Source of the DNA: Alphaproteobacteria bacterium
GTDB taxonomy: Bacteria; Pseudomonadota; Alphaproteobacteria; GCA-2731375
Direction of reading: 5' to 3'
Assembly (NCBI GenBank): GCA_965226475.1
Contig: CBDDDJ010000004.1
Span: 1,821,963-1,885,962 of the forward strand
DNA: 64,000 nucleotides
Shown here: piece after piece, positions 3,600 to 54,047 of the stretch
Layout of the letters: each line of letters starts with the position of its first letter
How positions within the stretch are numbered: position 1 is the first letter of the stretch
Notes under the pieces: model-generated
Database searches by the model: none
What the model was told of the DNA's origin: nothing
The model's input: only the letters and a program-made list of their open reading frames with translations
Position numbers and translations under genes: made by a program

Positions 3600-4010
3600 A
3601 TGGCCGATAATTTTGAGAAGAAAGTTGCTGTTGATGGGCCTGTGGTAAATGCGGGCGAGCTTGGCTCGTCCACGTTTTCCCCAGGCCAGGCTTTGCCGGC
3701 AGGCCCGCTGGGACTTGGCCAGCGATGGACGGTGGCGCGCAAGCGTGAGGTCGTTCCGCGGCTTTTGCGTGACGAGCCGGTGCAACTTCTGTCGCGCCAG
3801 TTGGGCGTAGAGATCTTCCGGCTCGAGCAGTGGCGTGAGAAAGCGATCGGCGGGATCGACGCCTCGCTCAAGCGACGCAAGGGCGATCCGGTGCAGGCGG
3901 AACTGGATAGCGCCATGAAGCGGATCGGAGAGTTGACCATGCAGGTGGAACTGCTGGAGGCCAAGACGGAGACCTTCGGCCCTTTGGGGCGGCGGAGGTC
4001 GCGGCGATGA
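3600..4010 (+). CDS. IS3-family transposase OrfA (small HTH/leucine-zipper protein)
   Basis: 136 aa, MADNFEKK...RRKGDPVQAELDSAMKRIGELTMQVELLEAKTETF. It overlaps orfB in an ATGA arrangement. The orfB reading frame is open from 3911, which gives a roughly 100-nt -1-frame overlap typical of IS3 programmed frameshifting. Confidence 0.75.
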   Translation: MADNFEKKVAVDGPVVNAGELGSSTFSPGQALPAGPLGLGQRWTVARKREVVPRLLRDEPVQLLSRQLGVEIFRLEQWREKAIGGIDASLKRRKGDPVQAELDSAMKRIGELTMQVELLEAKTETFGPLGRRRSRR

Positions 4011-4912
4011 GTGCCGCCACCTCGCCCGGCACGGGTCTGGCCTACGGCCTGCGGCGGGTCTGCGCCGCCTGGGGCATGGCCCGCTCCTCGTTCTACGCCA
4101 TGACCTCCGGCCAGCACGCCGAGCAGCCGCCGGCAAAGCGTCGGGGACCGAAGCCCGCGATCTCGGACCAGGCGCTGCTGGTGGCGATCGAAGCCGACCT
4201 GGAGGCATCGCCCTGGGAGGGCGAGGGCTACCGCAAGGTCTGGGCTCGGCTTCGGGTCTGTCGCGACATCCGGGTTGCCCGCAAGCGGGTGCTCCGCCTG
4301 ATGCGCGAGAACAATCTGCTCTCGCCCCATCGCTGCCGCCGCCGTGGCGGCAATCCCCATGACGGTGAGATCATCACTCATGCCCCGAACCTCATGTGGG
4401 GCACCGATGGCGTTCGGGTGTTCACGGTGGACGACGGCTGGGGCTGGATCTTCACCGCCGTCGAGCATTGGAACGCCGAGTGTGTCGGCTGGCATGTCTG
4501 CAAGCGCGGCGACCGCTTCGCCGCCCTGCAGCCGATCTCCATGGGGCTTGCCGGGCTGTATGGCTCGACCGCGGCCGGCGCGGCTCGGGGGCTGGCCTTG
4601 CGGATGGATCACGGCTCCCAGTATCTGTCGGACCACTTCACCAACCAGATCAAGTTCTGGGGCATCCAGCCGTCCTACGCCTTCGTCGCCGAGCCCCAGA
4701 CCAACGGCGTCGCCGAGCGGTTCAATCGCACGCTGAAGGAACAGATCATCCATGGTCGCATCTACCGCAACATCGCGGAGCTGCGGGACGCCGTCCGCGA
4801 CTTCGTCGAACTCTACAATGCCCAGTGGATCGTCGAAAAGAACGGCTACCTGAGCCCCGCTCAAGCTCGTCAGGCGTGGCACGCCGCGATCTCAATCAGG
4901 CCCGCCGCGTGA
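4007..4912 (+). CDS. IS3-family transposase OrfB (integrase catalytic core, rve domain)
   Basis: 301 aa. It has an N-terminal HTH (GLRRVCAAWGMARSSFY) and a DDE core (...WGTDGVRVFT..., ...RMDHGSQYLSDHF..., ...QTNGVAERFNRTLKEQ). It lies in the -1 frame relative to orfA. Confidence 0.85.
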   Translation: MSAATSPGTGLAYGLRRVCAAWGMARSSFYAMTSGQHAEQPPAKRRGPKPAISDQALLVAIEADLEASPWEGEGYRKVWARLRVCRDIRVARKRVLRLMRENNLLSPHRCRRRGGNPHDGEIITHAPNLMWGTDGVRVFTVDDGWGWIFTAVEHWNAECVGWHVCKRGDRFAALQPISMGLAGLYGSTAAGAARGLALRMDHGSQYLSDHFTNQIKFWGIQPSYAFVAEPQTNGVAERFNRTLKEQIIHGRIYRNIAELRDAVRDFVELYNAQWIVEKNGYLSPAQARQAWHAAISIRPAA

Positions 4913-5596: not shown

Positions 5597-7234
5597 GCGG
5601 CTGCCCCTCGCATCAAGGCAATGAGGCCCGCCGGATCGGCCGGCGGCCCATCCCCACGCCACGCGACATGCTGGTCGGGCCGGGCGAGGACCAGGGCCCG
5701 GTCGTAGGGTGCCGTCGGCGCCAGATCGAGCAGGGTCAACGGTACGCCACGCGCTTCGGCCGCGTCCAGCAGCGGCCGGACCTCGATGCCGGGATCGAAG
5801 CGCAGCAGCGTGTAGCCCTCTCCCAGGCGATCGTGGAGGCTTCGGCCATCCGCCAGAAACACATGCGGCAGGCGGCAGCCCGGCACGGTGGAGGGAGTGA
5901 ACGCGGCCATGGTGTAGCCCGGCGCGGCCTCGCCGTCGTGGGCGATGATGGGTGAATTTTCATAGAAACAGCCAAAATTGAGGCCGGCGCAGCAGTATTG
6001 CTGGACGTTCAAGGCATAGGCGCGTTCGCCGAGGGCCCGGCGCGCGGCCTCGCCCGCTTCGTCCTCATCCTCGATATTGGCGGGCACGGCGCCGCGCTGG
6101 CCGGCCATGGCGTGGGCGTGGTCCATCACGAAGCGGGAGACTTGGCGGGTGATCGGCCCGCGCTCGGCCTCGTGCGCGTCGAGGATGGCTTCCCCGGCCC
6201 AACCGGCGAGGTGCGCGGCCAGCAGCCAGGCGAGATTGGCGGCGTCCGCGATGCCGGCGTTCATGCCGTAGCCGGCATAAGGCACCCAGATGTGGGCGGC
6301 ATCGCCGGCGATGAAGACCCGGCGGTCCCGGATCCTGTCGGCGACCAGGCGGCGGCCGATCCAGTCAATCGGCGCCAGCAGCTCACACCCGAAGTCGGCG
6401 CCGACACCCAGGATCTCTCGGATCGCCCAATCGCGGTCCACCGCGTCGAAGCCGGCCTCTTCCGGGCGCAGGCAGTTGTGCACCACCCAGCGCTCGCGCC
6501 CGTCGATGGCGTAGACGTTGCCGCTGCGCCGGGGGTTGAGGGAGAAGGTGGCCCAGGCCGGCGCCTCCCGTTGCCGCTCGATCAGCTTCGGCGCGCGGAT
6601 ATAGCTCGACTGCACCCGCTGGATCACCGCGTCACCCTCGAGGCGCGCGCCCATGGCGCGGCGGATGGAGGAGCGGCCGCCGTCGCAGCCGACCAGATAA
6701 CGACAGCGAATCCGGGTCTCGGTCCCGTCCTCCAGGCTCCGGGCGGTCGCCAGCACGTGGTCGTCCGCCTGCGTGAAATCCTCGACCGTGGCGCGGGTCA
6801 TGATGCGCGCGCCGGCCATGGCTTCGGCGTGGGCGAAGAGGATCGGCTCCAGGAAGATCTGGTTGATGCGGTGCGGCGGTTCCGCCGTCGGCCAATCGGT
6901 GTCCGGGCCGTTCACGGCGGTGAAGCGGTCGCGCCGGCAGGGGATCGGAATCCGCGTGAGTTCGCGCCCGGTGAAGCTGGTGCGGTAGGAGACGTCGTTG
7001 GGATAGTCGGCGGGCAGGCCGGCGTCGCGCAACGCACCCGCCACAGCCGAGGCGGCGGAAGATCTCCATCGAGCGGGCGACGACGTGGTTGCACTTGGGC
7101 GGCGGTGGCTCGCTCCGCGCGCGCTTCTCCACCACCATGACCTCGATGCCGCGCCAGGCCAGATCCGTCGCCAAGGTCAGGCCGACCGGCCCGCCGCCGA
7201 CGATGAGGACGGGGACTTCGATCTCGCGCATCAT
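5587..7234 (-). pseudogene. FAD-dependent aromatic-ring monooxygenase (PheA/TfdB-like), split by a 1-nt frameshift near 7040-7050
   Basis: The N-terminal Rossmann segment MMREIEVPVLIVGGGPVGLTLATDLAWRGIEVMVVEKR...ARSMEIFRRLG is in one frame, starting at 7234. The remaining 485 aa, from ...AGALRDAGLPADYPND to the C-terminus, is in the adjacent frame. The junction lies at ggcTgtggcggg. Confidence 0.6.
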
Positions 7235-7270
7235 GGGGCCTCCGGGCTCGGAGCGATTACGGTTCGCGTC

Positions 7271-7702
7271 TCAATCGGCATTCAGCGCCACCACCACGAT
7301 CAGGGCCTTGCCGGCGACGGTGAGGTGTTGGTGCGCGTTGGCGTTGAGCGTCACCATCACTTCGAGCTTGCCCCCGGGCGGTCCGGCGAGATGGAACCGG
7401 GGACCACGGACTTCCGTGAACATCTCGCCGCCGACGTAGAGATGGGCATGGCCCTCGCCCGCGACGTGGGCGCCGCCCGCGTGTTCGGGCGCGAAGCGGA
7501 AGTTCGTCGTCCTGAGCTCGATATTCCAGCCGCCACCCTTGTCCCCGCGTGCCACGACGGCGAGGGTCGGGGCGCCGGCGCCGGGCGCGAGGTCGAGCGA
7601 GCCGGGCAGCCGGTGGCCCGCGCCGTAGTCGGCGGCGAACGCATTGCTCGCCAGGCTCGGACCCAGGGCAAACGCGACGGCGGTTCCAGAGCCTCTCGTC
7701 AT
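7271..7702 (-). CDS. Hypothetical secreted, His-rich small protein
   Basis: 143 aa. There is a predicted signal peptide (AVAFALGPSLASNAFA|AD). It has several His pairs (EHAGGAHVAGEGHAHLY, NANAHQH). No family was recognised. Confidence 0.4.
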   Translation of the reverse strand: MTRGSGTAVAFALGPSLASNAFAADYGAGHRLPGSLDLAPGAGAPTLAVVARGDKGGGWNIELRTTNFRFAPEHAGGAHVAGEGHAHLYVGGEMFTEVRGPRFHLAGPPGGKLEVMVTLNANAHQHLTVAGKALIVVVALNAD

Positions 7703-8184
7703 TCCTCGCCGCTCTCCGCGCGCCGGGCCGCTTCCGTTTGCCGCCGCAGGCTCTCCTCCGGCCAGAGCGCCGAGGCATCATATATGGTCTCGAACCGCGG
7801 CACGTCCGCCGACAACTCCAACCAGGGAAGCTTGCTCCGGGTCCAGATATGCGCCCGGGGCACGATGCCGGTCGTATCGTCGAGCGTGCCGGGCCGGATG
7901 GCGAGGACGCCCGGCCGCAAGTCGGTGCGGCCGAACAGCCAGCCGCCGCAATGGGGGCAAAAGTAGCTCTGCTTGCCGGCGCCACTACCGCCGGTGAGAG
8001 CGGCCTCCCCGGGTTCGCCCGATACGACGCGGAAGTCGCGCGCCTCGACAAGCATGGTGAGGCCGAAGGTGGTGCCGCTCGCGCGCTGGCAGTCGGTACA
8101 GTGGCAGGCGTGGACGAAGAGCGGCTCGCCCTCGAACACGTAGCGAATCGCGCCGCAGGCGCAGCCGCCGGTCTTGTGCATCAT
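7699..8184 (-). CDS. GFA family protein (glutathione-dependent formaldehyde-activating / CENP-V-like Zn-binding domain)
   Basis: It begins MMHKTGGCACGAIRYVFEGEPLFVHACHCTDCQRASG, with the characteristic Cys clusters, and continues FCPHCGGWLF. The longer upstream ORF extension is Arg-rich frame noise. Confidence 0.8.
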   Translation of the reverse strand: MMHKTGGCACGAIRYVFEGEPLFVHACHCTDCQRASGTTFGLTMLVEARDFRVVSGEPGEAALTGGSGAGKQSYFCPHCGGWLFGRTDLRPGVLAIRPGTLDDTTGIVPRAHIWTRSKLPWLELSADVPRFETIYDASALWPEESLRRQTEAARRAESGEE

Positions 8185-9092
8185 GCGCCCCCTTCCCCGC
8201 GACCCATGCCGAAAGCGTCCGCCCGGACGGCGAGGCGCTTGGCGTTCAGGTAGATCGGCACCTCGACCAGGCTGCCATCGACCTCGACCCTCGCCTCGCC
8301 CCGGGCGCGGGCGGCCTCGAAGGCGGCGACGATCCGACGGGCGGAGGCGGCCGCCTCCACGCTCGGCGTCAATACTCGGTTGATCACGGCGCAGTGCGGC
8401 GGGTGCACGGCCGTCTTGGCGATATAGCCGAGGCGGCGGACGGCCAGCGTGTCGGCCTCGCAACCCGCCAAATCGGTCCAGGTATAGGGTTGATCGACCG
8501 CGATTTTGCCGTGGCCCCGGGCGATCAGGTGGAACTGGGCACGGAGGTGGGCCATCTCGGCCGAATCCCGACTCCGCTCGACGCCGAGGTCGGCGCCCAT
8601 GTCCTCGCCGCCGGCGATGGCGGCCCGGATACGGGGACTCGCGCCCAAGATCTCGCCCAAGCGAAGGAACCCCGCCGCCGTCTCGACGTTGGGCACCAGC
8701 TCGGTGGCGCCCGGCTCGAGGCCCAATTCCCGCTCAAGCCGGCCGACCTGGCGGTCAAGCTCGGTCACATGATCTGGCCGCTCGACCTTGGGCAGGAAGA
8801 CGATGTCGGGCGCGCCGCGCATCGCCGCCTCCAGGTCCAGCAGGCCGTCCTCGTCCAACGGGTTGACCCGGACGGCGGCAATCGCGCCCGCCCGCTTCCA
8901 GGCGGCGAGGATGTCGACCGATATCTCCCGCGCCTCCGGCCGACGGGCCGGCGGGGTGAAATCCTCGAACTCCTGAATCAGCACGTCGCCGCCGCTCGTC
9001 GCGGCATTCAGCAGCACCTCCCGCTCCGCCCCCGGCAGAAACAGCCAGGAGCGGCGAAGCTCCACCGTCCGTTTCCTCGCACCCATCGCCAC
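8181..9092 (-). CDS. HpcH/HpaI aldolase / citrate lyase beta-subunit (CitE)-like CoA-ester lyase
   Basis: 303 aa, ...SWLFLPGAEREVLLNAATSGGDVLIQEFEDF...IVFLPKVE... It is a paralogue of 61146-62054. Confidence 0.8.
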   Translation of the reverse strand: MAMGARKRTVELRRSWLFLPGAEREVLLNAATSGGDVLIQEFEDFTPPARRPEAREISVDILAAWKRAGAIAAVRVNPLDEDGLLDLEAAMRGAPDIVFLPKVERPDHVTELDRQVGRLERELGLEPGATELVPNVETAAGFLRLGEILGASPRIRAAIAGGEDMGADLGVERSRDSAEMAHLRAQFHLIARGHGKIAVDQPYTWTDLAGCEADTLAVRRLGYIAKTAVHPPHCAVINRVLTPSVEAAASARRIVAAFEAARARGEARVEVDGSLVEVPIYLNAKRLAVRADAFGMGRGEGGA

Positions 9093-9205
9093 CGCCCTTC
9101 CTCGCTCCCTCGTCGTGGCGCATTATGCCGGAATCCCGGGCGCGATCGGAGCCCCAAATCGAGCGAGGAAGCGATGCGTCCGACTCCGAAATGCCAGGCG
9201 GCGCC

Positions 9206-10438
9206 ATGAGCGGGCACCGGATTTCGATCGACGCCGACCGGCTGTTCGACCGCATCCATGAATTGGGCGCGATCGGCGCGCTGCCCGACGGCGGCGTCGG
9301 CCGCCTGGCGCTGACCGACGCCGACCGGCAGGCGCGCGACCTGCTGGTCGACTGGATGTGGGCGCTTGGCCTCGAAGTGGAGATCGACGCCATCGGCAAC
9401 ATCCTCGGCTGGCGCGAGGGGTCCGAACTCGAAGCCCCGATCATGACCGGTTCCCACATCGACAGCGTCCGCGCGGGCGGGCGGCTGGACGGCGCCTATG
9501 GCGTGCTGGCGGGCCTCGAGGTGGTGGCCTGCCTGAACGATCACCACCTGACCACCCGCCTTCCCCTGGTGGTCGCCGCCTTCACCAACGAGGAGGGCGC
9601 GCGCTTCCAGCCGGACATGCTGGGCTCGCTGGTGCATGTCGGTGGCATGAGCCTCGCCGACGCGCTCGACACGCGCGATGCGGCCGGCGCGCGCCTCGGC
9701 GCGGAGTTGGCGCGGATCGGCTATGCCGGCGGGGCCAGTCCCGGCGCGATCCGCCCCGCGGCCTTCGTCGAGCTGCACATCGAGCAAGGCCCGATCCTGG
9801 AGGCCGAGGGGATCACCATCGGCGCGGTCGAGGGCGTGCAGGGGATCAGCTGGCGGGAATACCTCTTCGCCGGCCAGGCCAACCACGCCGGCACCACACC
9901 GATGCGGCTGCGCCGTGATGCCGGCCTCGCCGCCGCCCGCCTCGCGGTCGCGGTGCGCGAGATCGTCGGCGAAATCGGCGGCGACCAAGTCGGCACCATC
10001 GGCGAGATCGAACTGACGCCCAACGTCATCAACGTGGTCCCCGGCCGGGCGCGAATGACCGTCGACCTTCGCAACACCGACGAGGACCTACTGCGGAAGG
10101 CCGAGGCCCGCGTGGCGGTCGCGGTAGAGGGAATCGCCCGGGCCGAGGGCGTCGGGCTGGAGACCCGCGAACTCGCCCGCTTCGAACCGGTGGTCTTCGA
10201 CGCCGGTCTGGTGGCCCGTATCGAGGACGCGGCGCAAGCGCGCGGCCATAGCCACCGCCGTATGGCATCCGGCGCCGGTCACGACGCGCAGATGCTGGCC
10301 CGCATCGCGCCGGCGGCAATGATTTTCGTTCCCAGCGTCGGCGGCATCAGCCACAACCCGGCCGAACACACCGACGCACCCGACCTCGAAGCCGGCGCCA
10401 ACTTGCTGCTCGACATGATGCTGGAAATGGCCCTTTGA
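9206..10438 (+). CDS. Zn-dependent M20-family amidohydrolase (N-carbamoyl-L-amino-acid hydrolase / allantoate amidohydrolase type)
   Basis: MSGHRISIDADRLFDRIHELGAIG..., then ...TGSHIDSVRAGGRLDGAYGVLAGLEV..., then ...GAGHDAQMLARIAPAAMIFVPSVGGISHNPAEHT, which are typical AmaB/HyuC/AllC motifs. Confidence 0.8.
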   Translation: MSGHRISIDADRLFDRIHELGAIGALPDGGVGRLALTDADRQARDLLVDWMWALGLEVEIDAIGNILGWREGSELEAPIMTGSHIDSVRAGGRLDGAYGVLAGLEVVACLNDHHLTTRLPLVVAAFTNEEGARFQPDMLGSLVHVGGMSLADALDTRDAAGARLGAELARIGYAGGASPGAIRPAAFVELHIEQGPILEAEGITIGAVEGVQGISWREYLFAGQANHAGTTPMRLRRDAGLAAARLAVAVREIVGEIGGDQVGTIGEIELTPNVINVVPGRARMTVDLRNTDEDLLRKAEARVAVAVEGIARAEGVGLETRELARFEPVVFDAGLVARIEDAAQARGHSHRRMASGAGHDAQMLARIAPAAMIFVPSVGGISHNPAEHTDAPDLEAGANLLLDMMLEMAL

Positions 10439-10490: not shown

Positions 10491-13400
10491 TTATTCCGCC
10501 GCCGCCTCGCTGCCGCCGGCGGTCTGACGGGCGACGAGGCGGGCGTAGAGGCCGCCTCGGGCCAGAAGTTCCTGGTGGCTGCCGACTTCGGCGACGCGGC
10601 CGTCCGCCAGCACGACGATGCGGTCGGCCTCGCGCACGGTCGAAAGGCGGTGGGCGATGACCACGGTGGTGCGGTCATGCATCAGGTCGTCGAGGGCGCC
10701 GTGCACCGCGCGCTCGTTGATGGCGTCCAGATGGCTGGTCGCCTCGTCCAGGATCAAGATCGGCGCGTCCTTCAGGAATGCGCGGGCCACGGCGACACGC
10801 TGGCGCTGACCGCCCGAGAGTTGCATGCCGCGCTCGCCGACGGGGGTATCGAGGCCTTGGGGGAGCGAGGCGGTGAAGTCCGAGAGAGCGGCACGGCGGA
10901 TCGCTTCCTCCAGTTCGGCCTCGCTCGCCCCTGGGCGGGCCATTTTGATGTTGGCGCGAAGCGTGTCGTTGAAGAGATAGGTGTCCTGGGCGACGAGGGC
11001 GATGCGCCGGCGCACCTCGTCGAGGGCGAAGTCGCGCAGGTCGCGGCCGTCCATCAGCACCCGGCCCCGGTCCGGATCCCAAAAGCGCATCAGCATATGG
11101 GCGATCGTGGTCTTGCCGGCGCCGGACGGGCCGACCAGGGCCACGGTCTCGCCCAGCGTCACTTCGAAGCTGACGTCGCTCAAGGCGGCACGATTAGCTC
11201 CGTGGTACTGGAAGCTCGCGCCATCGAGGGCCAATGCTGGCGCGCCCGCCTTGGCCGCGCCGGTGCCGGGGCCGTCCGTCACCGCCACTTCCTCGTCGTG
11301 GATCGCATACACCCGGCGGGTCGAGCCCAAGGTATCGGCGAGCTGGCGGCCGATGTTGGCGATCTCCGAGATGGGCAGGAAGGCGGCCATGGCGAGCAGG
11401 GTCAGGATCGGCAGCAGGCCCGCTTCCAGCGCGCCAGCCCGTACCTGGGCCGCGCCGGCGACGACGACGGCGAGACCGCCGAGACCGGTCATGGTCTCCA
11501 GAACCGTCATCTGCCGGGTGAGGTCGCGGAAGAAAGGCAGGCGCACGGCGTGGAAGCGGGCCATGCGGCGGGCGAAATCCTCGCCCCGGGCCGCCTCGCG
11601 CTGGAAGGCGACGATTTCGGTCAGACCCTGCACCGTGTCGACGGCATGCGCGTTCAGGTCGCCCAGGGATTCCCGCGCGCGGGAGCCGAGCTCGTCGACG
11701 CGCTTGCGCAGCATGAAGGGGCTCGTCGCCACCACCGCCAGGAAGGGCGCCAGCGCCAGTGCCAACGGCCAGCCGAAGACGAAGAGCGTGGCCAGCACCA
11801 CGCCCGGCACCAGCACGGCGACGAAGGCCGGCGCGATGGTGTGGGCGAAGAAGAACTCCACCGTCTCCACGTCCTGCGTGGCCGCCGCGACCAGGTCTCC
11901 GGTCCGCCGGCGCAACAGGTATGCCGGCGCCAGGCGGTCGAGCTGCTCGAACAGCGCCACCCGCATCTCAGCCAACAGACGAAACGCCATGTCGTGGGCG
12001 ATCCAGCTTTCGAACCAGTGCAGGATGCCCGCGGCGGGCGCCATGACGGCGAGCCAGACCAGCGCCGGCACCGGATCGCCACCGACTTTCAGCTGGTAGA
12101 CGGCGAGGCCGCTCAACACGCCGATGGCGATGAAGGCAATGACGCGGGTGACGCCGAAGAGGAAGGTGAGCGCCAGCTTGCCCTTCCACGGGATCACCAG
12201 GCGCATCAGCTCCATGATCGCCCGGCCCCAGCCCATGCCCTCGGCCCGGATGATGGCGTCGGTCGGCTCCAGCAGCCCCGTGGCCGCCCCGCCGACGACC
12301 AGATCCTCGGCCGGCGGCGGCGCGGTTTCGGCGCCGTCGTCGATAGTGACCTGGCCGTCGCGGGCCTGGCGGCCCATCAGCTGGTGGTAGATCCCGCCCT
12401 TGGCCATCAGTTCCGCGTGACAGCCGCTTTCCACCACCCGGCCCGCATCCAGCACCAGGATGCGGTCGGCGTCGATCACGCTGGACAGCCTGTGCGCCAG
12501 GATCAGGGTCGTGCGCCCCCGCATCAGCCGGTCGAGGGCTTGGCTGATGATCGCCTCGTTCTCGGCATCGACGGCGGAAAGCGCTTCGTCCAGCACCAGG
12601 ATCGGTGCGTCGCGCAGCAGCGCCCGGGCGATCGCGACGCGCTGGCGCTGCCCGCCCGAAAGCCTGACGCCGCGCTCGCCGATCACCGTGTCGTAGCCCT
12701 GAGGCAGCATGGCGATGAAGTCGTGCGCGTTGGCGGCCCGCGCCGCCTCGATCAGATCGGCTTCGCTCGCGTCCGGCTTGCCGAAGGCCAGATTCTCGCG
12801 AATCGTGCCGTGGAATAGGTAGGTGTCTTGGTTAACCACCGCGATGGCGCGGCGGATGTCGGCCTGGCGGAGCGCGCGCAAGTCGACGCCACCAATGGTG
12901 ATTCGGCCCTCGTTCGGGTCGTAGAGCCTGAGCAACAGGCGGACGATCGAGGATTTACCGGCCCCGCTGGCGCCGACGATGCCGATCCGCTTGCCCGCCT
13001 CGACGGTGAAGTCGAGGCCGCTGTGCGCCGCCTGGCGGCCGCCCGGGTAGGAGAAGCCGACGGCCTCGAAGCGGATCTCGGGCACGAGGCCACCTTCGAC
13101 CGGCTGGGCGTCCCGCGCATCGGTGATCGCGGGCTCGGCGGCCAGGATCGCCGTCACCCCTTCCGCCGCCGACTGGCCGACCATGCCCTGATGAAGGAGC
13201 GAGCGGAGATCGCGCAAGGGCCGAAACACTTCCGTCCCTAGCATCAAGATCACCAGCAGCACGGTGATCTCCATCTGGCCCTCGGCCACCCGCCAAGCAC
13301 CCAGCGCCACCGTGGCCGCCGCGCCGAGCGCGATGCCGGCATCCGTGATGCCGCGCGCCAGCGAGTTGGTCGCCAGCACCCACATGGTCGAGCGGAAGAG

Positions 13401-14090
13401 GTCCCGCGCCTTGGTCGAGAGCATGGCGACCTTGTCGCGGCTCTGCCCGAAGGCCTTCAGCGTGGCGAGGCCCTGGACGCAATCGAGGAATTCGGCGGCG
13501 AAGGCCGCATAGGCCCGTTGCCGTTTCTTCGAATTGTCGCTGTCCCAGCGATGGAAGAGGGCGGGGGCGACCAGGGTCAGCAGCGCGAAGGCGACCATGA
13601 GGATCGCCGTCGGCGCGTCGAGGAAGAGCATGAAGACCAAGATCACCAGCGGCGTCAGCGCGGCGACGAAAAGCTGCGGCAGATACTGGCCGAAATAGGT
13701 CTCCAGCTGCTCCACCCCGTCGACCAGGGAGAGGATGACGTCGCCGGTCCGCGTCAGGCCGAAATGCGCCGGCCCGAGGGCGACGATTCGGTGGTAGAGC
13801 TTCTCGCGCACGCGGGCCTGCACCAGCGCCGCCGTCTCGTGCGCGGTCATGGTGCGCCAGTGTTCGAGCCAACCGCGCACGATCATCACCGCCGCCACGA
13901 GGGCGAAGGGCAACAGCAGTTGGGAGAGACCGACGCCCTGGAACACCTTGCCGATCAGCCAGCCCAAGAGCGCCAGCCGCGCAACCCCGAAACAGGTGGC
14001 GATCAGCCCGACCAGCACGGTGAGCGCGATCCGCCCCCGCACCCCCTCGGTGAAGCCCCAAAGCCTGGAATCGAAATACACGCTGCCCAC
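10491..14090 (-). CDS. Fused ABC exporter with two tandem TMD-NBD halves
   Basis: 1199 aa. There are two Walker A motifs (GASGAGKSS and GPSGAGKTT) and two signature motifs (LSGGQRQRVAIARALL and LSGGQRQRVAVARAFL). Each NBD is preceded by about six hydrophobic helices. Confidence 0.85.
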   Translation of the reverse strand: MGSVYFDSRLWGFTEGVRGRIALTVLVGLIATCFGVARLALLGWLIGKVFQGVGLSQLLLPFALVAAVMIVRGWLEHWRTMTAHETAALVQARVREKLYHRIVALGPAHFGLTRTGDVILSLVDGVEQLETYFGQYLPQLFVAALTPLVILVFMLFLDAPTAILMVAFALLTLVAPALFHRWDSDNSKKRQRAYAAFAAEFLDCVQGLATLKAFGQSRDKVAMLSTKARDLFRSTMWVLATNSLARGITDAGIALGAAATVALGAWRVAEGQMEITVLLVILMLGTEVFRPLRDLRSLLHQGMVGQSAAEGVTAILAAEPAITDARDAQPVEGGLVPEIRFEAVGFSYPGGRQAAHSGLDFTVEAGKRIGIVGASGAGKSSIVRLLLRLYDPNEGRITIGGVDLRALRQADIRRAIAVVNQDTYLFHGTIRENLAFGKPDASEADLIEAARAANAHDFIAMLPQGYDTVIGERGVRLSGGQRQRVAIARALLRDAPILVLDEALSAVDAENEAIISQALDRLMRGRTTLILAHRLSSVIDADRILVLDAGRVVESGCHAELMAKGGIYHQLMGRQARDGQVTIDDGAETAPPPAEDLVVGGAATGLLEPTDAIIRAEGMGWGRAIMELMRLVIPWKGKLALTFLFGVTRVIAFIAIGVLSGLAVYQLKVGGDPVPALVWLAVMAPAAGILHWFESWIAHDMAFRLLAEMRVALFEQLDRLAPAYLLRRRTGDLVAAATQDVETVEFFFAHTIAPAFVAVLVPGVVLATLFVFGWPLALALAPFLAVVATSPFMLRKRVDELGSRARESLGDLNAHAVDTVQGLTEIVAFQREAARGEDFARRMARFHAVRLPFFRDLTRQMTVLETMTGLGGLAVVVAGAAQVRAGALEAGLLPILTLLAMAAFLPISEIANIGRQLADTLGSTRRVYAIHDEEVAVTDGPGTGAAKAGAPALALDGASFQYHGANRAALSDVSFEVTLGETVALVGPSGAGKTTIAHMLMRFWDPDRGRVLMDGRDLRDFALDEVRRRIALVAQDTYLFNDTLRANIKMARPGASEAELEEAIRRAALSDFTASLPQGLDTPVGERGMQLSGGQRQRVAVARAFLKDAPILILDEATSHLDAINERAVHGALDDLMHDRTTVVIAHRLSTVREADRIVVLADGRVAEVGSHQELLARGGLYARLVARQTAGGSEAAAE

Positions 14091-14640: not shown

Positions 14641-15617
14641 GTCGCCCGTTTGGCCATCTCGGCGGCTTCCATGGCCCCGAAATCGAACGGCCCCTCGGCC
14701 GCGACGCGGCGCAGCTGGCCGTTCCGCGCCTTCACCATCCAGGTGAGCGCCTCGTTGTAGGGCGTCGGGATACCGAGCGCCCGGCCCTCCCGCACCACGG
14801 CGCCGTTCAGCGCATCGATCTCGGTCGGCCGGTTCGCTTCCATGTGCTGCAGCATGGAGGGTTTGTTGAACTTGAAGGTATAGGCCTTGATGTGGCCGAG
14901 GGGGTCGGGCGTGGCGAGGCGGATGCCCTTGGCCTCGGCGATGGCCAGCGCCTCCTCGACGCATTTCGTCTGCATCAGATCGGCGCCCTCGTGCAGCGGG
15001 ATTTCGCCGACGCGCAGTTCCAGCAGCGCGCAGAGCGGGTTGAGGGCGCAGTTGTGAATGAACTTGCTCCAGCAGATACCCATGACGTTGTCGGAGATCT
15101 CGGGTCCCAGGCCGCCGCGCTCCAGCGCCGCGACAAGGGCCTGCAGCCGCTGGCTGGTGCGCCCGTCGAGCTCGCCCAGGTAGGTCTTGCCGGCGTGGCT
15201 GTGGCGCGGCCGGCCGGGCCCGAGCATGAGCGCGCTGTGGTAGCTGACGCCGCCCAGCACGCGCTCTTCGCCCAAGGCGGCGACCAGCGTCTCGACGTTG
15301 CCGATGCCGTTCTGCAAGGTAATGGCGATACCATCGGGTTTCAGCGCCGCCTTGGCGGTCTGGGCCGCGGCATCGCGGTTGTTGGTATCGGTCTGCACGA
15401 TGGCGACGTCGTAGTCGCCCGGCCGGTCGAGGCGCTCGTGGATCGGCACTTCCACATGCACCGCCTCGCCGACGTCGTCGAGCACGAGGCCGTTCTCGCG
15501 GATGGCCTGGACATGCTCCGCCCAGGTGTCGATCAGGGTGACATCGACCCCGGCCTTGGCCATCAGGCCACCGTAAGTCCCGCCCATGGCGCCCGCGCCG
15601 ATGATGACGATCCGCAT
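14637..15617 (-). CDS. panE: 2-dehydropantoate 2-reductase (ketopantoate reductase)
   Basis: [30 protein letters not shown]..., then ...[33 protein letters not shown]. Its TGA stop overlaps the GTG start of the downstream LLM remnant (GTGA). Confidence 0.8.
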
Positions 15618-15712
15618 CGCAATATCCTCCCCGCCGTTTGGTCGGACCATGCTCTAGCATGGCGGAGCGCGCCGGGGCTATTGTGCGACGAGATCCGCAC
15701 GGGAGCCCGACC

Positions 15713-16885
15713 ATGTTGCCCAACGCCTATCCGACCCTCGATTTCGGCCTCGGCGAGACCGCCGACATGCTGCGCGACAGCGTCGCCAGCTTCGCCGCCG
15801 ACCATGTCGCCCCGCGCGCCGACGAGGTCGACCGCACCGACACCTTTCCCCGCGACCTCTGGCCCAAGATCGGCGAGCTGGGCCTGCACGGCATTACGGT
15901 GGAAGAGGAATACGGCGGCGCCGGCATGGGCTATCTGGAACATGTCATCGCGGTGGAGGAGATGTCGCGCGCCTCGGGCTCGATCGGACTCAGCTACGGC
16001 GCGCACTCGAACCTTTGCGTCAACCAGATCCGCCGCAACGCCAGCGAAGCGCAGAAGCGGCGTTACCTGCCGAAGCTGATTTCGGGCGAGCATGTAGGCT
16101 CCCTCGCCATGTCGGAGCCCTCGGCCGGCTCCGACGTGGTCTCGATGAAGCTCCGAGCGGAGAAGAAGGGCGACCGCTACGTGCTGAACGGCAACAAGAT
16201 GTGGATTACCAACGGCCCCGATGCCGACGTGCTCTTCGTCTATGCCAAGACCGATCCGGAGGCCGGGCCCAAGGGCATCTCCGCCTTCCTGATCGAGAAG
16301 GGCTTTCCCGGCTTCTCCACCGCGCAGAAGCTCGACAAGCTCGGCATGCGCGGCTCCTCGACCTGCGAGTTGCTGTTCCAGGATTGCGAGGTGCTCGAGG
16401 AGAATCTGGTCGGCGGCGAGAACAACGGCGTGCGGCTGCTGATGAGCGGCCTCGACTACGAGCGCGCGGTGCTGGCCGCCGGGCCCTTGGGGATCATGCA
16501 ATCCTGCATGGACGTGGTGATCCCCTACGTCCACCAGCGCGAGCAGTTCGGCCAGCCGATCGGCGAGTTTCAGCTGATGCAGGGCAAACTCGCCGACATG
16601 TACACTACCATGAATGCGACGCGCGCCTATGTCTATGCCGTGGCCCAGGCCTGCGACCGGGGTCAGACCACCCGCAAGGACGCCGCTGGCGCGATCCTCT
16701 ACGCGGCGGAAAAGGCGACCTGGATGACCTTGGAAGCAATCCAGGCCCTGGGTGGCATGGGCTACATCAACGAGTCGCCCACCGGTCGTTTTCTGCGCGA
16801 CGCCAAGCTCTACGAAATCGGCGCCGGCACTTCGGAAATTCGCCGCATGCTGATCGGGCGCGAACTCTTCATCGAGACGGCCTGA
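15713..16885 (+). CDS. ivd: Isovaleryl-CoA dehydrogenase
   Basis: [24 protein letters not shown]..., then ...[56 protein letters not shown]..., then ...[21 protein letters not shown]. Confidence 0.85.
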
Positions 16886-16887
16886 CC

Positions 16888-18603
16888 ATGTCCGAGACGA
16901 CCAATTCCGAATCGTTCGGCGCGCTCTGGCCGGGCGGGCCTTATGCGGTGGACATCGTCGAGCCGGCGCCTCGGCCTTCGAGCTTGGCGGGCAAGACCAT
17001 CGGCTTTCTCTGGGACGACATGTTCCGGGGGGAGGAGATCTTTCCCGTGATCGAGGACGAGATCCGCGCCCGCCATCCCGACGCGCGCTTCGTCGGTTGG
17101 CGGGCTTTCGGCTCGATCTTCGGCGGCGAGGAACACCGGGTGCTGGAGGAATTGCCCCGCCGCTTGGCGGAGGAGAGGGTCGATGCTGTCGTTTGCGGGG
17201 TCGGCTGTTGAGGCCCGTGCACGCCCGCCGTGATGCGGGCGAGCGCGGTGGTCGAAAAGGCCGGTATCCCGACGGCATTGCTGGTCTGTGACGGCTTCCT
17301 CGGCCAGGGGGCGGTGACGGCGGGCGGGCTGGGTATCCGGGCGCTGCCCATCGCCCGCCTCGTCGGCCATGTCGACGGGCAGGATGCCTCGGAACTTCGC
17401 GACAACGTCCGCCGCGTCACCACCGGCGATGTCGTGCGCCACCTGACCAGGGGCCCCGAGGCGGGCACGAATGGCGACGATTTCGCCTCGGGCGACATCG
17501 TCGCCGAAGGGAGCTTCGACGCGGTCAACGAGATCTTCGAGGCGCGCGGTTGGACCGACGGTCTGCCGATCGTGCCGCCGACGGCCGGCAAGGTCGCCGC
17601 CTTCCTGGCCCGGACCGACGACGACCCCGAACGAGTCATTGGCACGCTGCGGCCCGCCGGGCGGGCGGCCACGGTCGGGAACGTCGCGGTCAACGGCGTC
17701 ATGGCCGGCTGCCGGCCGGACTACATGCCCGTACTGATCGCCGTCGCCGAGGTGCTGGCCGATCCCGGCTACGGGGTCGAACACAGCGGCGATACCACGG
17801 GCGGCGACGCCCTGATCATGCTGTCTGGCCCGATCATCCAAGAACTCGGCTTCTACACCGAGAACGCCTCGATGCGGGAGGGCACCCGCGCCAACACCAG
17901 CGTCGGCCGCTTCCTGCGCCTCTTCCTGCGGAATGTCGCCGGCTGCCTGCCGGGGGCCGGCGACAAGAGCACCTTCGGCAATCCGGCCAAGGTCGTGCTG
18001 GCGGAACACGAGGACGAAGTCCGGAAATTGGGCTGGCCGCTTTTCGCCCAGGACCGGGGCTTCGACGCTGGTACCAACGTCGTCACCATCGCCCGGTTCA
18101 CCAGTGGCGGCGTCATCGGCTCGATCTACGGCAACGACCCAGAGGTGATCAGCGCCTATCTCGCCGACGGCCTAGTACGCCATTCGGGCTGGGAGCTGAT
18201 CTTCACCGTCGGCTTCGCGCCGGGCACCTACCGCCCCTTGCTGGTGATCAGCCCCATGGTGGCCAAGACCTTGGCCCGCGCCGGCTGGTCGAAGGCGGAT
18301 TTCCGCCAGGCACTGTTCCGCCACGCCCGCCTGCCGGCCTCGAAAATGGAGACTTTCCTCGGCCCCTGGACCAACCTGTTGCCGGGCCGCCCGAAGCTCG
18401 GCCAACTGGTGGCGGCGGGAAGCGCCGATCCCCTGTTCGCCGAGGCCGACGATCCCGACCGCCTGGTGCCGATCGTGAAACGCGCGGAGGACATCATGAT
18501 TCTGGTGAGCGGCGATCCGTTGCGCTCCAACGCCTTCGCGCTCGCCAGCAACGGCATGCACGGCTTCCCGACCAGCCGCGAGATCCGCCCGCCGGAGCGT
18601 TGA
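16888..18603 (+). CDS. Candidate selenoprotein of the UGSC-motif type. The two ORFs 16888-17211 and 17230-18603 are in the same frame and are joined by a single in-frame TGA at 17209-17211
   Basis: The read-through translation is ...VDAVVCGVGC-U-GPCTPAVMRASAVVEKAGIPTALLVCDGF... A hairpin lies 10 nt downstream of the TGA. The second ORF has no Shine-Dalgarno sequence. A second selenoprotein-like gene occurs in the same window. The alternative interpretation is two separate genes. Confidence 0.5.
17222..17241 (+). promoter_or_regulatory. Candidate bacterial SECIS stem-loop downstream of the in-frame UGA
   Basis: The stem is cgcccgc/gcgggcg (7 bp) and the loop is cgugau (containing G and U). 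It starts 11 nt 3' of the UGA. Confidence 0.4.
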
Positions 18604-18733
18604 ACCGGGGTCGCGCGACGCATGTTTCGGTAGACTGAAGTCTCCTCCGACGGCGGATGACGAAGACTGACGGGTCGACTGCTGGCGACGCTGACAAACT
18701 CGGCCAGGATCGCGGCGAGGCCACGCCCCAGCC

Positions 18734-19873
18734 TCAGCTCTCGGCGCGCAAGGCCCGGCCAATGACCAGTTTCTGCACGTCGCTGGTGCCTTCGTAGATC
18801 TGGGTCACGCGGACGTCGCGGTAGATCCGCTCGACGCCATAATCCGATAGATAGCCATAGCCGCCCAGGGTCTGGATCGCGGCGGAGCAGACCCGTTCCG
18901 CCATCTCGGAGGCGAAGAGCTTGGCCATCGAGGCTTCCTTCAGGGAGGGCAGACCCGCGTCCAGCAGGCGGGCGGCGTGGTGGGTTAGCTGTCGGGCCGC
19001 CTCGATCTCCGTCGCCATTTCGGCCAGGCGGAAATCCACCGCCTGATGTTCGATGATCGGTTTGCCGAAGGCCTCGCGCTCCTGGGCGTATCCGAGCGCT
19101 TGCGACCAGGCGGCACGCGCCATGCCCGCCGCCTGCGCGGCGATGCCGATGCGCCCCGTCGAGAGGTTGGCCAGAGCGATCTTGTAGCCTTCGCCGGGCG
19201 CGCCCAGCATGTCGTCGGACGAGACGCGAAGGCCGTCGAGCACGATGTGGCAGGTGTCGGAACTGCGTTGGCCGAGTTTTTCCTCGATTCGGGCGACGGT
19301 GTAGCCTTCCGCCGGGATTGCGGCGAGGAAGCAGGAGATGCCGCGTTTGCCGGCCGCCGGATCAGTCACGGCGAAGATCATCGCGACCTTCGATATGCTG
19401 CCGGAGGTGATGAACTGCTTGTCGCCGGTGATGACCCAATGGTTGCCGTCGTCGACGGCGCGGGTGCGGAGGTTCGAGGCATCGGAGCCCGCTTGCGGCT
19501 CGCTCAGCAGGAAGCAACCGATGATCTCGCCCCGGGCGAGGGGTGTCAGCCAGCGGGCCTTTTGTTCCTCCGAGCCATACTTCTGAATCGCGGCGCAGAC
19601 TGGCGAATTGTTGACGCTCATCACCGTCGAGCAACCGCCCTCGCCAGCCGCGATTTCCTCCAGCGCCAAGATATAGGACATGAAGTCGGCGCCGGCCCCG
19701 CCCCAGGCCTCGTCGACGCAGACCCCCATCAGGCCGAGCTTGCCCATCCGCCGCAACACCTCGGGCGGAATGCATCCCGCCCGCTCCCATTCGGCGGCGT
19801 TGGGGTGGAGTTCGTTCAGGGCGAACGCCCGCGCCATCTGCTGGATGATCCGTTGTTCCTCGTCGAGCATCAT
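18734..19873 (-). CDS. Acyl-CoA dehydrogenase (short/branched-chain type)
   Basis: 379 aa, ...GSEEQKARWLTPLARGEIIGCFLLSEPQAGSDASNLRTRA..., ...YEGTSDVQKLVIGRALR. Confidence 0.85.
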   Translation of the reverse strand: MMLDEEQRIIQQMARAFALNELHPNAAEWERAGCIPPEVLRRMGKLGLMGVCVDEAWGGAGADFMSYILALEEIAAGEGGCSTVMSVNNSPVCAAIQKYGSEEQKARWLTPLARGEIIGCFLLSEPQAGSDASNLRTRAVDDGNHWVITGDKQFITSGSISKVAMIFAVTDPAAGKRGISCFLAAIPAEGYTVARIEEKLGQRSSDTCHIVLDGLRVSSDDMLGAPGEGYKIALANLSTGRIGIAAQAAGMARAAWSQALGYAQEREAFGKPIIEHQAVDFRLAEMATEIEAARQLTHHAARLLDAGLPSLKEASMAKLFASEMAERVCSAAIQTLGGYGYLSDYGVERIYRDVRVTQIYEGTSDVQKLVIGRALRAES

Positions 19874-22199: not shown

Positions 22200-23381
22200 T
22201 CACTTGGCCGCTCTGCTGTTCTTGGTTTCGTCGAGGACGGTGCCGTCGGCCTGATATCGGGCCAGCCGGCGCGGGCCGTGGAAGACCGCCAGGGTGCCGC
22301 CGGAGTATTCGTGGACCCGCACCGATGCCTTGACGTAATGGCGGCGGTGGCGATCCTCCGGGATCTGCAGCACCAGCCGCTTGTAGCGCACCGTGTTGTC
22401 GTTGCCGACGATCCGGTCCTCCTGGATGCACAGGATGTCGTCGAGCGATCCGGTGAAGGGGACAAAGGCCGAGCCCTCGGCTTCGGCCGGCACCGCGAAA
22501 CGGGCGTTGTGGCGGGGCAGATAAATCTCGCGCAGGAACGCGTTGGCCTCGGCCATCGTGGTGATGGCGGCCAAGCGCAGTTCCTGCGGCAGGCGATTCT
22601 GCAATGTCGCGAACATGCGCTCCGAGCGCCCCCGGGCCTCGGGGGAGTAGGCCGGGATCAGTTCGATGCCCAGCTGGCCCAGGGCTCGGCCCACCTGGGT
22701 CGGGTTGTTCTTGTCCACCTTGCCGCCGGCCTCGGGCGTGTGCCAGTAGTGCGAGGCCCGGTCGGCGTAGAGCGAGCAGAACAGCCCCCGGACCTCGATC
22801 ACCTCGCCCAGGGCCCGGAAGCTGCTCATGGTCCCCTCTTCGTCGACGAAGAAGGCCGAGTAGATCTCGCTGGTTGCGTCATCCATGGTGACGATCAGGT
22901 CCCACCACTGCCCGGGAACCCATTGGTGGGTCGAGCCGTCCTGGTGCAGCATCATGGCGGGCAGGGCGCGGCGCGGCCGCTTGCGCCGGTGCGCGCCTCG
23001 CCGCGGTGCCGGACGTTTGCGCCCGTGGGCCTGGAGCGTCAGGCGGACCCAGTTGTAGCTCCGCGTGAAGCCGTGCTCATCGAGCAGCTTCTCGTGGAAG
23101 TGCTTGGCCGTGAAGTCCCAGTAGCGCGTGTCGAACAACTCCAGAACCTCCATCACCGTGTCCACCGGCACCCGGTGCCCCGAGACCTTGCCCAGCCGGC
23201 GGTCATACAGACCCTCCGCGCCTTCCGCCTCAAAGCGACCCCGCCAGCGCCGGAACGTTCGCTCGCTCATCCCCAGGATCGACGCCGCCTCCGACTGGCT
23301 CAGTCGCCGCCGCTTCGCGCGCTCCAGAATCTCCTCGAACTTCATCTGCCGTAGTCCTTGCAACACCTCGGCCCGCTTCAT
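22200..23381 (-). CDS. DDE transposase of the ISNCY-family-like / IS481-like type
   Basis: 393 aa. It has an N-terminal HTH (SQSEAASILGMSERTFRRWRGRF) and a catalytic region (MLHQDGSTHQWVPGQWWDLIVTMDDATSEIYSAFFVDEEGTMSSFRALGEVIEVRGLFCSLYADRASHYW). Confidence 0.8.
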   Translation of the reverse strand: MKRAEVLQGLRQMKFEEILERAKRRRLSQSEAASILGMSERTFRRWRGRFEAEGAEGLYDRRLGKVSGHRVPVDTVMEVLELFDTRYWDFTAKHFHEKLLDEHGFTRSYNWVRLTLQAHGRKRPAPRRGAHRRKRPRRALPAMMLHQDGSTHQWVPGQWWDLIVTMDDATSEIYSAFFVDEEGTMSSFRALGEVIEVRGLFCSLYADRASHYWHTPEAGGKVDKNNPTQVGRALGQLGIELIPAYSPEARGRSERMFATLQNRLPQELRLAAITTMAEANAFLREIYLPRHNARFAVPAEAEGSAFVPFTGSLDDILCIQEDRIVGNDNTVRYKRLVLQIPEDRHRRHYVKASVRVHEYSGGTLAVFHGPRRLARYQADGTVLDETKNSRAAK

Positions 23382-30693: not shown

Positions 30694-31725
30694 TCACTCG
30701 GAATCGCCGCCCATCATCAAGGCGAAGCCGCCGACCCCCGCGTCGGAACCACCTTGCAGCTCGAAGCGCCGGCCCTCCTCGATGCCGCGCTCGGTCAGCT
30801 CGAGCAGCCGCTTGGGCCTGAGGACGGCGAGATCGATGCCGCGGTCGGGGGCGAGATCCGCGATGGCCGGCTGGCCGGCTAGCCGTTCGTCCGCCATAAG
30901 CGGGCGTTGGAAGAGGCCGAGCGCCGCGGCGTGCTCGCCGATCAGGCCCAGATCGACCACGCGGGGGCCGTCGTGGCCGCCGAACCATTCGGGATCGGCG
31001 GCGACCGACCGGGCGAATTCGAGGCCGCGCGGCGTCAGGTCGTGCACCAGGAAGACTTGTAGCGCCGCGCGGCCTCGGACCGCGGCCAACATCGGTTGCC
31101 ACAATTCGGGCGGATCCTCGGGGCTGACGACATGGCAAGCGTTACGCAGGTCGAAGCCGTTGGCCCGATAGAAAATTGCATGGTCACGCCGCTCGCAGAT
31201 CAACAGCCGGTCGTGAACCACCTCGCCGAGGGCCGCAGAGGTCTCCGCTTCGTCGGCGGCCTCCGGCGAGATCACATGGGTCGGCGGATTGAGCTGGGCA
31301 TAGCGTTGCAGGATGCGCGGGACGTTGACTTTGGTCAGGTCGGTCCGAAGCTGCTTCTTGGCTGGAATCTTGTCGATGAATTTCGCGACCAGGACAAAAC
31401 CGATGATGGCCGAAACGATCGCCGCCGCGATGTTCCAGATGAAGAACAGCAGAATCGCCACGACCGCCACGATGCCCAAGGCGATGATCCATCGAATTCG
31501 GCCAGGCCGGGCCAGCCGGCGTTCCATCTCGTAGTTCAGCTGGGCCGGCAGATAACAGTGCTCGCCGTTCGCCGTCACGGAGTCGATCGCCAGCTTGACC
31601 GCCATGTCGGCCATGCCGTCAACCTTGGGATTGAGAGCGAAGAGGTGGCCGCATTGACCGCACTTGGCCGCCGGGCGGCCCTTGCCCAGGGGCTTGGTGT
31701 CGCCTTCGCACGCGACGCAGCGCAT
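30694..31725 (-). CDS. Hypothetical membrane-anchored protein with an N-terminal zinc-ribbon
   Basis: 343 aa. It starts MRCVACEGDTKPLGKGRPAAKCGQCGH (CxxC...CxxC). It has a single TM helix (IIALGIVAVVAILLFFIWNIAAAIVSAIIGFVLV). This is followed by a soluble domain of about 230 aa with no recognisable family. Confidence 0.5.
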   Translation of the reverse strand: MRCVACEGDTKPLGKGRPAAKCGQCGHLFALNPKVDGMADMAVKLAIDSVTANGEHCYLPAQLNYEMERRLARPGRIRWIIALGIVAVVAILLFFIWNIAAAIVSAIIGFVLVAKFIDKIPAKKQLRTDLTKVNVPRILQRYAQLNPPTHVISPEAADEAETSAALGEVVHDRLLICERRDHAIFYRANGFDLRNACHVVSPEDPPELWQPMLAAVRGRAALQVFLVHDLTPRGLEFARSVAADPEWFGGHDGPRVVDLGLIGEHAAALGLFQRPLMADERLAGQPAIADLAPDRGIDLAVLRPKRLLELTERGIEEGRRFELQGGSDAGVGGFALMMGGDSE

Positions 31726-31798
31726 GTCCCCGCCTCCTCCTCGTCTCCGGACGCGGCTGATATGATCGCACAAGACGAGGGATTCGGGGACCTGGGCG

Positions 31799-51004: not shown

Positions 51005-51011
51005 CACCGCC

Positions 51012-53024: not shown

Positions 53025-53032
53025 GGGCGGCC

Positions 53033-53968: not shown

Positions 53969-54047
53969 GCCCCCGGTGCTAAGCGCTAACGACGCGCGGT
54001 GCAAGGGGGAAACGGCCCCCGCCCGGGCCGCGTCAGGGAGAGCGGAC

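Follow-up and report, generated by a model that had tools for sequence, protein, structure and literature searches.

The Split Gene at 16888–18603

This analysis concerns a reading frame at positions 16888–18603 (+) of a 64-kb stretch of alphaproteobacterial DNA (contig CBDDDJ010000004.1; hereafter the window), which is predicted to encode a selenoprotein of 571 residues belonging to the long form of the UGSC family. Except for one TGA codon, the coding sequence is a single open frame, and it has cysteine-containing homologues that match it from end to end. The frame starts at ATG 16888, proceeds through 107 sense codons to TGA 17209–17211, and is then open until TGA 18601–18603; with the recoded residue counted, the product has 571 residues and the inner TGA is codon 108. 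The translation around it reads VVCGVGC-U-GPCTPAVMRASAVVEK, where U stands for selenocysteine (Sec).

A sequence-only reading of this DNA had proposed that two open reading frames (ORFs) in the same frame, with no other stop between them, are joined by read-through into a selenoprotein of roughly 571 amino acids (aa), and this proposal is upheld by the frame, the Cys homologues, and the conservation of the TGA. The first ORF, which it gave as 108 aa, does end in VVCGVGC at the TGA, but is 107 aa long. The same reading expected standard annotation to report two genes. Public gene calls for relatives do consist of two genes, of 104–108 aa and 454–456 aa, and the DNA behind three short (~455 aa) homologues contains an upstream call of 104–108 aa that also matches the Pfam UGSC model, PF24696; because of these matching upstream calls, public annotation can be said to split the gene as foreseen. 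One of these three homologues, P0001, is identical to the second ORF of the window (ORF2) except for one residue. In the mechanical ORF list, ORF2 has 457 aa and begins at GTG 17230, which is in frame with ATG 16888 (342 nt apart). GTG 17230 and ATG 17233, the ORF2 starts used by gene callers, both lie inside the apical loop (17229–17234) of a hairpin described below, and no purine-rich stretch precedes either of them, in keeping with the lack of a Shine-Dalgarno sequence noted earlier. Because the loop sequence CGUGAUG of this hairpin supplies start codons, a false "second gene" start arises.

Recoding of the UGA Codon

The reading of UGA 17209–17211 as selenocysteine (U108) is supported mainly by homologues. 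Among 5.8 billion proteins searched, the matches fell into two length classes, one of 563–605 aa with 98–99% query coverage and 54–62% identity, and another of ~455 aa that covers the last 80% of the query with 60–71% identity and has the N-terminus M(L)RASA. The full-length homologues are single ORFs with Cys in the TGA column (GVGC-C-GACTPAVMRAS), apart from one that has Tyr; the single-ORF Cys versions whose existence was to be checked are thus at hand (563–605 aa; 56–62% identity, 98–99% coverage). Some homologues already carry the NCBI name "UGSC family (seleno)protein."

A locus scan in which each species was represented by a single genome turned up more than 595 loci, and 80 of them were retained. 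These come from Alpha-, Beta-, and Gammaproteobacteria and also from Actinomycetota, Chloroflexota, Methylomirabilota, Acidobacteriota, Thermodesulfobacteriota, Bacillota, and Lentisphaerota. When 84 related loci from at least eight phyla were aligned by tblastn through the stop, the codon at this column was TGA 81 times, TGC or TGT 11 times, and GGC once, which answers in favor of recoding the earlier question of whether Cys or Sec aligns at the TGA. Protein conservation runs on both sides of the TGA in the homologues, and the family motif is U-G-[SATGPN]-C-T-P-A-V, with Sec or Cys at the UGA column. The G+C content of third codon positions (GC3) is 0.84–0.88 on both sides of TGA 17209–17211. 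A scan of the window for TGAs flanked by high-GC3 coding sequence gave five sites, two of which have a Cys motif, namely 17209–17211 and 46153–46155 (−).

The partner of the Sec residue in the U-x-x-C motif is Cys111 (17218–17220, +), the motif being UGPC here and UGSC in most relatives. Cys111 is kept in all long-form homologues, whether of Sec or Cys type, except for a Gly-form paralogue in locus L050. The Cys preceding U (position −1) is frequent but not universal, being often Ala or Ser in relatives, and the Cys at −5 is peculiar to the window gene. Therefore, the CxxxC-U-xxC peptide that had been described as a classic redox motif is present, but only its U-x-x-C part is conserved. Several loci contain two or three paralogues each of the gene, which combines the UGSC domain with a C-terminal domain (domain X, below); in L013, L025, L043, and L055, each paralogous UGSC/X gene has its own in-frame TGA and a differently sequenced hairpin. 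Overall, the homologues show 16888–18603 to be one gene, whose UGA at 17209–17211 is, on this comparative evidence, predicted to be decoded as Sec.

The Hairpin Downstream of the UGA

The core hairpin occupies 17222–17241 (+) and was delineated from folding together with comparative data. Its stem (17222–17228/17235–17241) pairs CGCCCGC with GCGGGCG around the loop CGUGAU (17229–17234), leaves a 10-nt spacer from the UGA and so starts 11 nt after it, and overlaps the codons for T-P-A-V-M-R-A. The 7-bp stem with a G/U loop that had been pointed out from the sequence was found as described, and its conservation in Sec forms is at the RNA level. In the window sequence alone, the minimum-free-energy (MFE) structure has a 6-bp outer helix (17215–17248, +; 17215–17220/17243–17248) that encloses the core. 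Its pairs (columns 7–9/38–40) are unpaired in most homologues, and the outer helix was rejected as part of the element because it is not conserved.

The hairpin evidence is decisive because comparative results, not folding energy, support it. The inner five base pairs (columns 16–20/27–31) are almost invariant and are paired in 57–58 of the 58 Sec forms; the sixth (column 15/32) is paired in 51 of 58, three of which have a G-C to A-U double change. In the 51 Sec forms encoding T-P-A-V-x-R, the third codon positions of Pro113, Ala114, Val115, and Arg117 have an entropy of 0.14–0.32 bit, as against a minimum of 0.57 bit and a mean of 1.32 bit at 72 equally conserved four-fold sites of the same genes, and these four are the lowest-entropy four-fold sites of the whole gene. 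The codons CCC/GCC/CGG are used in 52 of 57 Sec forms, whereas CGG occurs in none of the eight Cys forms coding for the same peptide. Cys forms keep on average 3.9 of the 7 pairs and fold with −9.5 kcal/mol, compared with 6.2 of 7 and −15.8 kcal/mol for Sec forms. Divergent paralogues (…CTSWSVHD…, …CTPAAAR…) form different hairpins that are just as good and lie equally far from the UGA.

These comparisons show RNA-level selection on the hairpin in Sec forms only, and the hairpin would accordingly act as a selenocysteine insertion sequence (SECIS) element inside the coding sequence. It resembles bacterial SECIS elements of the Escherichia coli fdhF/fdnG type in lying within the coding region, in starting 11 nt after the UGA, and in having a G+C-rich stem with a small apical loop that contains G and U. 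It differs from the E. coli type in that the conserved stem is short (6–7 bp) and its sequence is family-specific, with no Rfam match; a search of the whole window with Rfam at gathering thresholds gave no match and no SECIS family.

A Second Probable Selenoprotein Gene in the Window

On the reverse strand, 46401–45754 (−) encodes a second probable selenoprotein, a peroxiredoxin-like protein of 215 residues of the AhpC/TSA family, in which the Pfam match spans TGA 46153–46155. This gene, which had been suggested as a second Sec-like gene, proved to be real: it has the motif FRGVW-U-PYC and its own 8-bp hairpin, which begins 11 nt after the UGA codon, that is, 14 nt from its first base. The ORF list again splits the gene, here into 82 and 123 aa. 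Because two independent Sec-type genes occur within 64 kb, Sec usage by this genome is very likely, as judged from the two genes.

The UGSC Domain

For Pfam and NCBIfam scans, the read-through was translated with Cys at the stop. PF24696 (UGSC) matches residues 20–187 (16945–17448, +) with an E-value of 2.3e-27 and 96.7 bits against a cut-off of 25, which bears out the suspected resemblance to the UGSC family and places the protein in it. Because the TGA is codon 108, in mid-domain, a single Pfam domain spans the stop. The window gene also has U-G-P-C at the column of the conserved U-x-x-C motif, and an in-frame UGA with conserved flanks and Cys homologues. However, NF041046, the NCBIfam equivalog model of the short form (147 positions), scores only 40.2 bits against a cut-off of 125, and long-form Cys relatives score 50–53 bits; because of these scores below the cut-off, the long form is taken to be a distinct subfamily and not an equivalog of the short form.

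Compared with the short UGSC selenoprotein (reference ABI76733.1, Hyphomonas neptunium), the window protein has the same PF24696 domain, the U-x-x-C motif, and rarer Cys homologues, in a family that is abundant in aquatic Alpha- and Betaproteobacteria and Actinomycetota. It differs in its length of 571 aa, as against about 150–185 aa, and in having UGPC instead of UGSC.

The domain is alpha/beta and carries the Sec-x-x-Cys center. In the AlphaFold2 (AF2) model of the Cys homologue P0010 (61% identical; predicted local distance difference test 91, predicted template modeling score 0.92), C103, the equivalent of Sec, sits in the loop that follows strand 95–101, and C106 opens helix 106–119; this modeled placement is the usual geometry of a redox-active pair. 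The fold neighbors of the model are flavodoxin- or Rossmann-like, and no thioredoxin-family protein is named in the 60 descriptions listed. A thioredoxin-like fold around UxxC, as suggested for UGSC in 2008, was thus not found in this model.

Domain X and Its Gene Neighborhoods

The C-terminal part of the protein, residues 200–571 (17485–18600, +), is an uncharacterized family that we call domain X. It had been described as a region of no recognizable family, and indeed residues 200–571 have no match in Pfam or NCBIfam; when the family alignment was used as a profile against PDB sequences, there were no hits at E-values up to 10. Across 70 diverse members, the motifs W-x-DGLP-x-x-PPT and N-x-VMAGC-x-P are near-invariant, as are Arg341, Asn336, Asn349, and Glu373, and a further motif is GR-x-x-RL. 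Cys275 (17710–17712), which is also near-invariant, is the only conserved Cys of the domain.

A HMMER search with residues 200–571 against 1.84 billion representatives found relatives of domain X in 4250 clusters. The domain occurs fused after the UGSC domain (~570 aa, or ~455 aa when truncated at the TGA), standing alone (~350 aa), in tandem (~700 aa), and in larger fusions (~1,250 aa); the standalone proteins are without a Pfam family. In L055 and L013, domain X is encoded separately, directly after the gene for a short UGSC selenoprotein. In one subfamily (L002, L004–L008, L022, L028, and L045), a UGSC-X gene is followed by a standalone paralogue, X', which matches domain X with an hhalign probability of 100%, and then by a flavoprotein resembling thioredoxin reductase (TrxR-like or TrxB-like) with a C-A-S-C-D-G motif. 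In L004 this three-gene arrangement covers 6001–9892, and its X' is ~410 aa long and has no Pfam family. P0094 is a triple fusion, UGSC-X-X', of 861 aa.

A TrxB-like flavoprotein gene neighbors the family gene in 21 of the 80 loci. Other recurrent neighbors encode Bug/TctC proteins, TRAP carboxylate-binding proteins, family III CoA-transferases, acyl-CoA synthetases, and enoyl-CoA hydratases, none of which is present in the window. The neighborhoods point, loosely, to organic-acid or acyl-CoA metabolism.

Remote Similarity to Stickland Selenoprotein B

Sixty family members were compared with all 18,950 NCBIfam models. Weak matches to PrdB appeared in 24 of the 60, and matches to GrdB, GrdF, GrdH, or a generic model in 8–11; no other family recurs beyond UGSC. 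Residues 88–132 of the window protein align with positions 129–172 of the PrdB profile, centered on Sec.

Like PrdB and GrdB/GrdF/GrdH, the UGSC protein would have Sec in a U-x-x-C-type motif of an alpha/beta domain, and the Sec subunit of the Stickland B type works with a separate catalytic partner. Thioredoxin-reductase genes occur in grd and prd operons, and thioredoxin-reductase-like genes are likewise found near UGSC family genes. There are also differences: domain X has no similarity to the pyruvoyl proproteins PrdA/GrdE, grdA-like or grdC/D-like genes are not seen nearby, and UGSC hosts are mostly aerobic or aquatic, unlike the amino-acid-fermenting clostridia of Stickland systems.

Proposed Mechanism

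The N-terminal ~190 residues make up one alpha/beta UGSC domain with the Sec-Gly-Pro-Cys center at a strand-to-helix junction, and the C-terminal ~370 residues make up a second domain, X, with the single near-invariant Cys275. In the mechanism that we propose, Sec108/Cys111 would alternate between selenol/thiol and selenenylsulfide states and would either hand reducing equivalents to the active site of domain X, a transfer possibly mediated by Cys275, or resolve an adduct there. In relatives with an adjacent TrxR-like flavoprotein, that enzyme may re-reduce the center with NAD(P)H. This working mode is likened to that of PrdB and GrdB with their catalytic partners in Stickland reductases. That Sec108/Cys111 serves domain X as a PrdB/GrdB-like redox relay recharged by a nearby TrxB-like enzyme is, by analogy, a tentative proposal to which we give somewhat less than even chances.

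A broader proposal is more speculative still. UGSC and domain X might together constitute a widespread, unrecognized class of Sec-dependent reductases, distantly related to PrdB/GrdB through the Sec subunit, with a partner fold that has no solved representative, recharged in many bacteria by a dedicated TrxB-like enzyme, acting on a substrate of the organic-acid or acyl-CoA type, and distributed in aerobic aquatic and soil bacteria; we regard this combination as possible but doubtful.

Alternative Explanations

The public gene calls for this locus and its relatives, and the presence of ORF2 in the mechanical list, would fit two independent genes, one for a 107-residue protein ending at a true TGA and the other for a protein of 456 or 457 residues starting from ATG 17233 or GTG 17230. 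Such an arrangement is, however, hard to reconcile with a single Pfam domain that spans the stop, with Cys homologues that are single ORFs, and with proposed starts that lie in a hairpin loop without a purine-rich stretch upstream; moreover, the 21 nt from the TGA to GTG 17230 encode the most conserved motif of the family, GxCTPAV. Two genes are therefore highly improbable. Even less credence can be given to a pseudogene or an assembly error in which a Cys codon (TGC/TGT) became TGA. One base change would suffice and Cys forms exist, but the same TGA occurs in 81 independent homologues, the near-identical and independent metagenome contig L087 shows the same arrangement, GC3 stays at the same level past the TGA, and a Sec-specific hairpin is present.

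The remaining alternatives accept Sec and concern its function. Four thiol or selenol groups fall within nine residues of the window gene, and metal binding is suspected for several prokaryotic selenoprotein families (PMC13188914), so that CxxxC-U-xxC might mainly bind a metal or metalloid (e.g., Hg, As, Cu, Se) instead of serving as a redox-cycling catalytic center, with domain X as a carrier or sensor. Yet conservation is confined to U and the +3 Cys, the −5 Cys being unique and the −1 Cys often Ala or Ser; the recurrent neighbor is a TrxR-like reductase and not a set of metal-resistance genes; and the sole remote family similarity is to the reductase selenoproteins B. We consider metal binding unlikely. 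A general thiol-selenol oxidoreductase (a thioredoxin/peroxiredoxin-type peroxidase or a protein-disulfide reductase), as opposed to a substrate-specific reductase, is also improbable, although it deserves more weight. A 2008 study proposed a thioredoxin-like fold and a redox function (PMC2398784), the motif is UxxC, and a peroxiredoxin-like selenoprotein is encoded in the same window; however, the AF2 neighbors are of the flavodoxin/Rossmann kind with no thioredoxin-family name among the 60 descriptions, and a dedicated active site is suggested by the obligatory tie to a large, conserved domain X in which numerous polar residues are invariant.

Several observations weigh against the preferred reading, a single Sec-containing protein working as proposed. 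The stability of the hairpin by itself is only modestly unusual (MFE −32.3 kcal/mol, z = −2.1; 6 of 200 shuffles fold equally well), and the stem has scant true covariation within the main subfamily. The Sec machinery is not in the window, so that we infer the Sec competence of the genome: ARAGORN found no tRNA in the 64 kb, hence no tRNA-Sec, and no SelA, SelB, or SelD domains were found among the ~45 window ORFs scanned with Pfam. Domain X resembles nothing of known function in sequence and structure searches. The TrxR-like gene and the X' paralogue are absent from the 64-kb window, and gene neighborhoods differ widely between relatives. The similarity to PrdB/GrdB is far under the family cut-offs: the best E-value for a Stickland B model is 2.5e-4, and with TIGR01917, TIGR01918, TIGR04483, NF040794, and NF040795 the window protein scores 12–17 bits against cut-offs of 300–775. 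It is therefore a lead that would indicate distant homology at most, not membership. All considered, we have high confidence that 16888–18603 encodes a single 571-residue long-form UGSC selenoprotein.

Other Features of the Window

Immediately upstream, 15713–16885 (+) encodes an acyl-CoA dehydrogenase with the Pfam Acyl-CoA_dh N, M, and C domains, which is context and not part of the element. Because its stop, TGA 16883–16885, lies only 2 nt before the ATG of the selenoprotein gene, the two genes are probably co-transcribed. Both of them end with TGA, which therefore serves this genome as an ordinary stop. The adjacency is repeated in L087, but it was rejected as a functional clue because it is found only there and in a few other loci, the neighborhood not being conserved. 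A scan of 15400–18900 for promoters and terminators gave no sites.

Mobile-element genes are found at 2544–3482 (−), 4007–4912 (+), and 22200–23381 (−), encoding an IS1595-type transposase, an rve-type integrase, and an IS481-like helix-turn-helix protein; insertion sequences appear to be present in this part of the genome. The 1199-residue ORF at 10491–14090 (−) combines two ABC transmembrane regions with two ABC ATPase domains; such a fully fused ABC exporter is uncommon in bacteria. The heme-biosynthesis cluster at 49574–54079 (−) consists of hemC for porphobilinogen deaminase, a fusion of hemD with a mitofilin-like region, and a hemY-like gene for a tetratricopeptide-repeat (TPR) protein. 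It is typical of Alphaproteobacteria, consistent with the closest relative being a Rhodospirillaceae metagenome-assembled genome (L001). Two further ORFs have coding-like GC3 but no clear family: one of 468 aa at 30694–32100 (−), which lacks Pfam hits and shares part of its length with an asparagine-synthase-like ORF on the opposite strand, and one of 373 aa at 35807–36928 (+), with only weak matches to PHB depolymerases/esterases.

Significance

The UGSC-containing protein was listed in 2007 as a selenoprotein of unknown function, for example in H. neptunium (PMC1976440). In 2008, the GOS study by Zhang and Gladyshev placed UGSC among the most abundant families, with 255 Sec and 21 Cys forms, and described its fusion to a conserved domain, "Unknown_1" (PMC2398784), which may correspond to domain X. 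The family was still uncharacterized in reviews of 2022 and 2026. Since 2005–2008 the family has been known, its fusion to an unknown domain included, and the finding is therefore not a new one; this locus is a correctly identified further member with a known kind of annotation error.

The locus is nevertheless a clean, well-controlled case of a selenoprotein that annotation pipelines still report as two hypothetical genes, and dozens of public relatives are truncated likewise. For the family, rather than as a discovery specific to this window, the analysis provides a testable framework for the substrate: in every case the Sec domain is either joined to or adjoins domain X, which is large and conserved and has neither a Pfam model nor a PDB fold neighbor; a TrxB-like reductase is often encoded alongside; and the sole remote similarity is to PrdB/GrdB.

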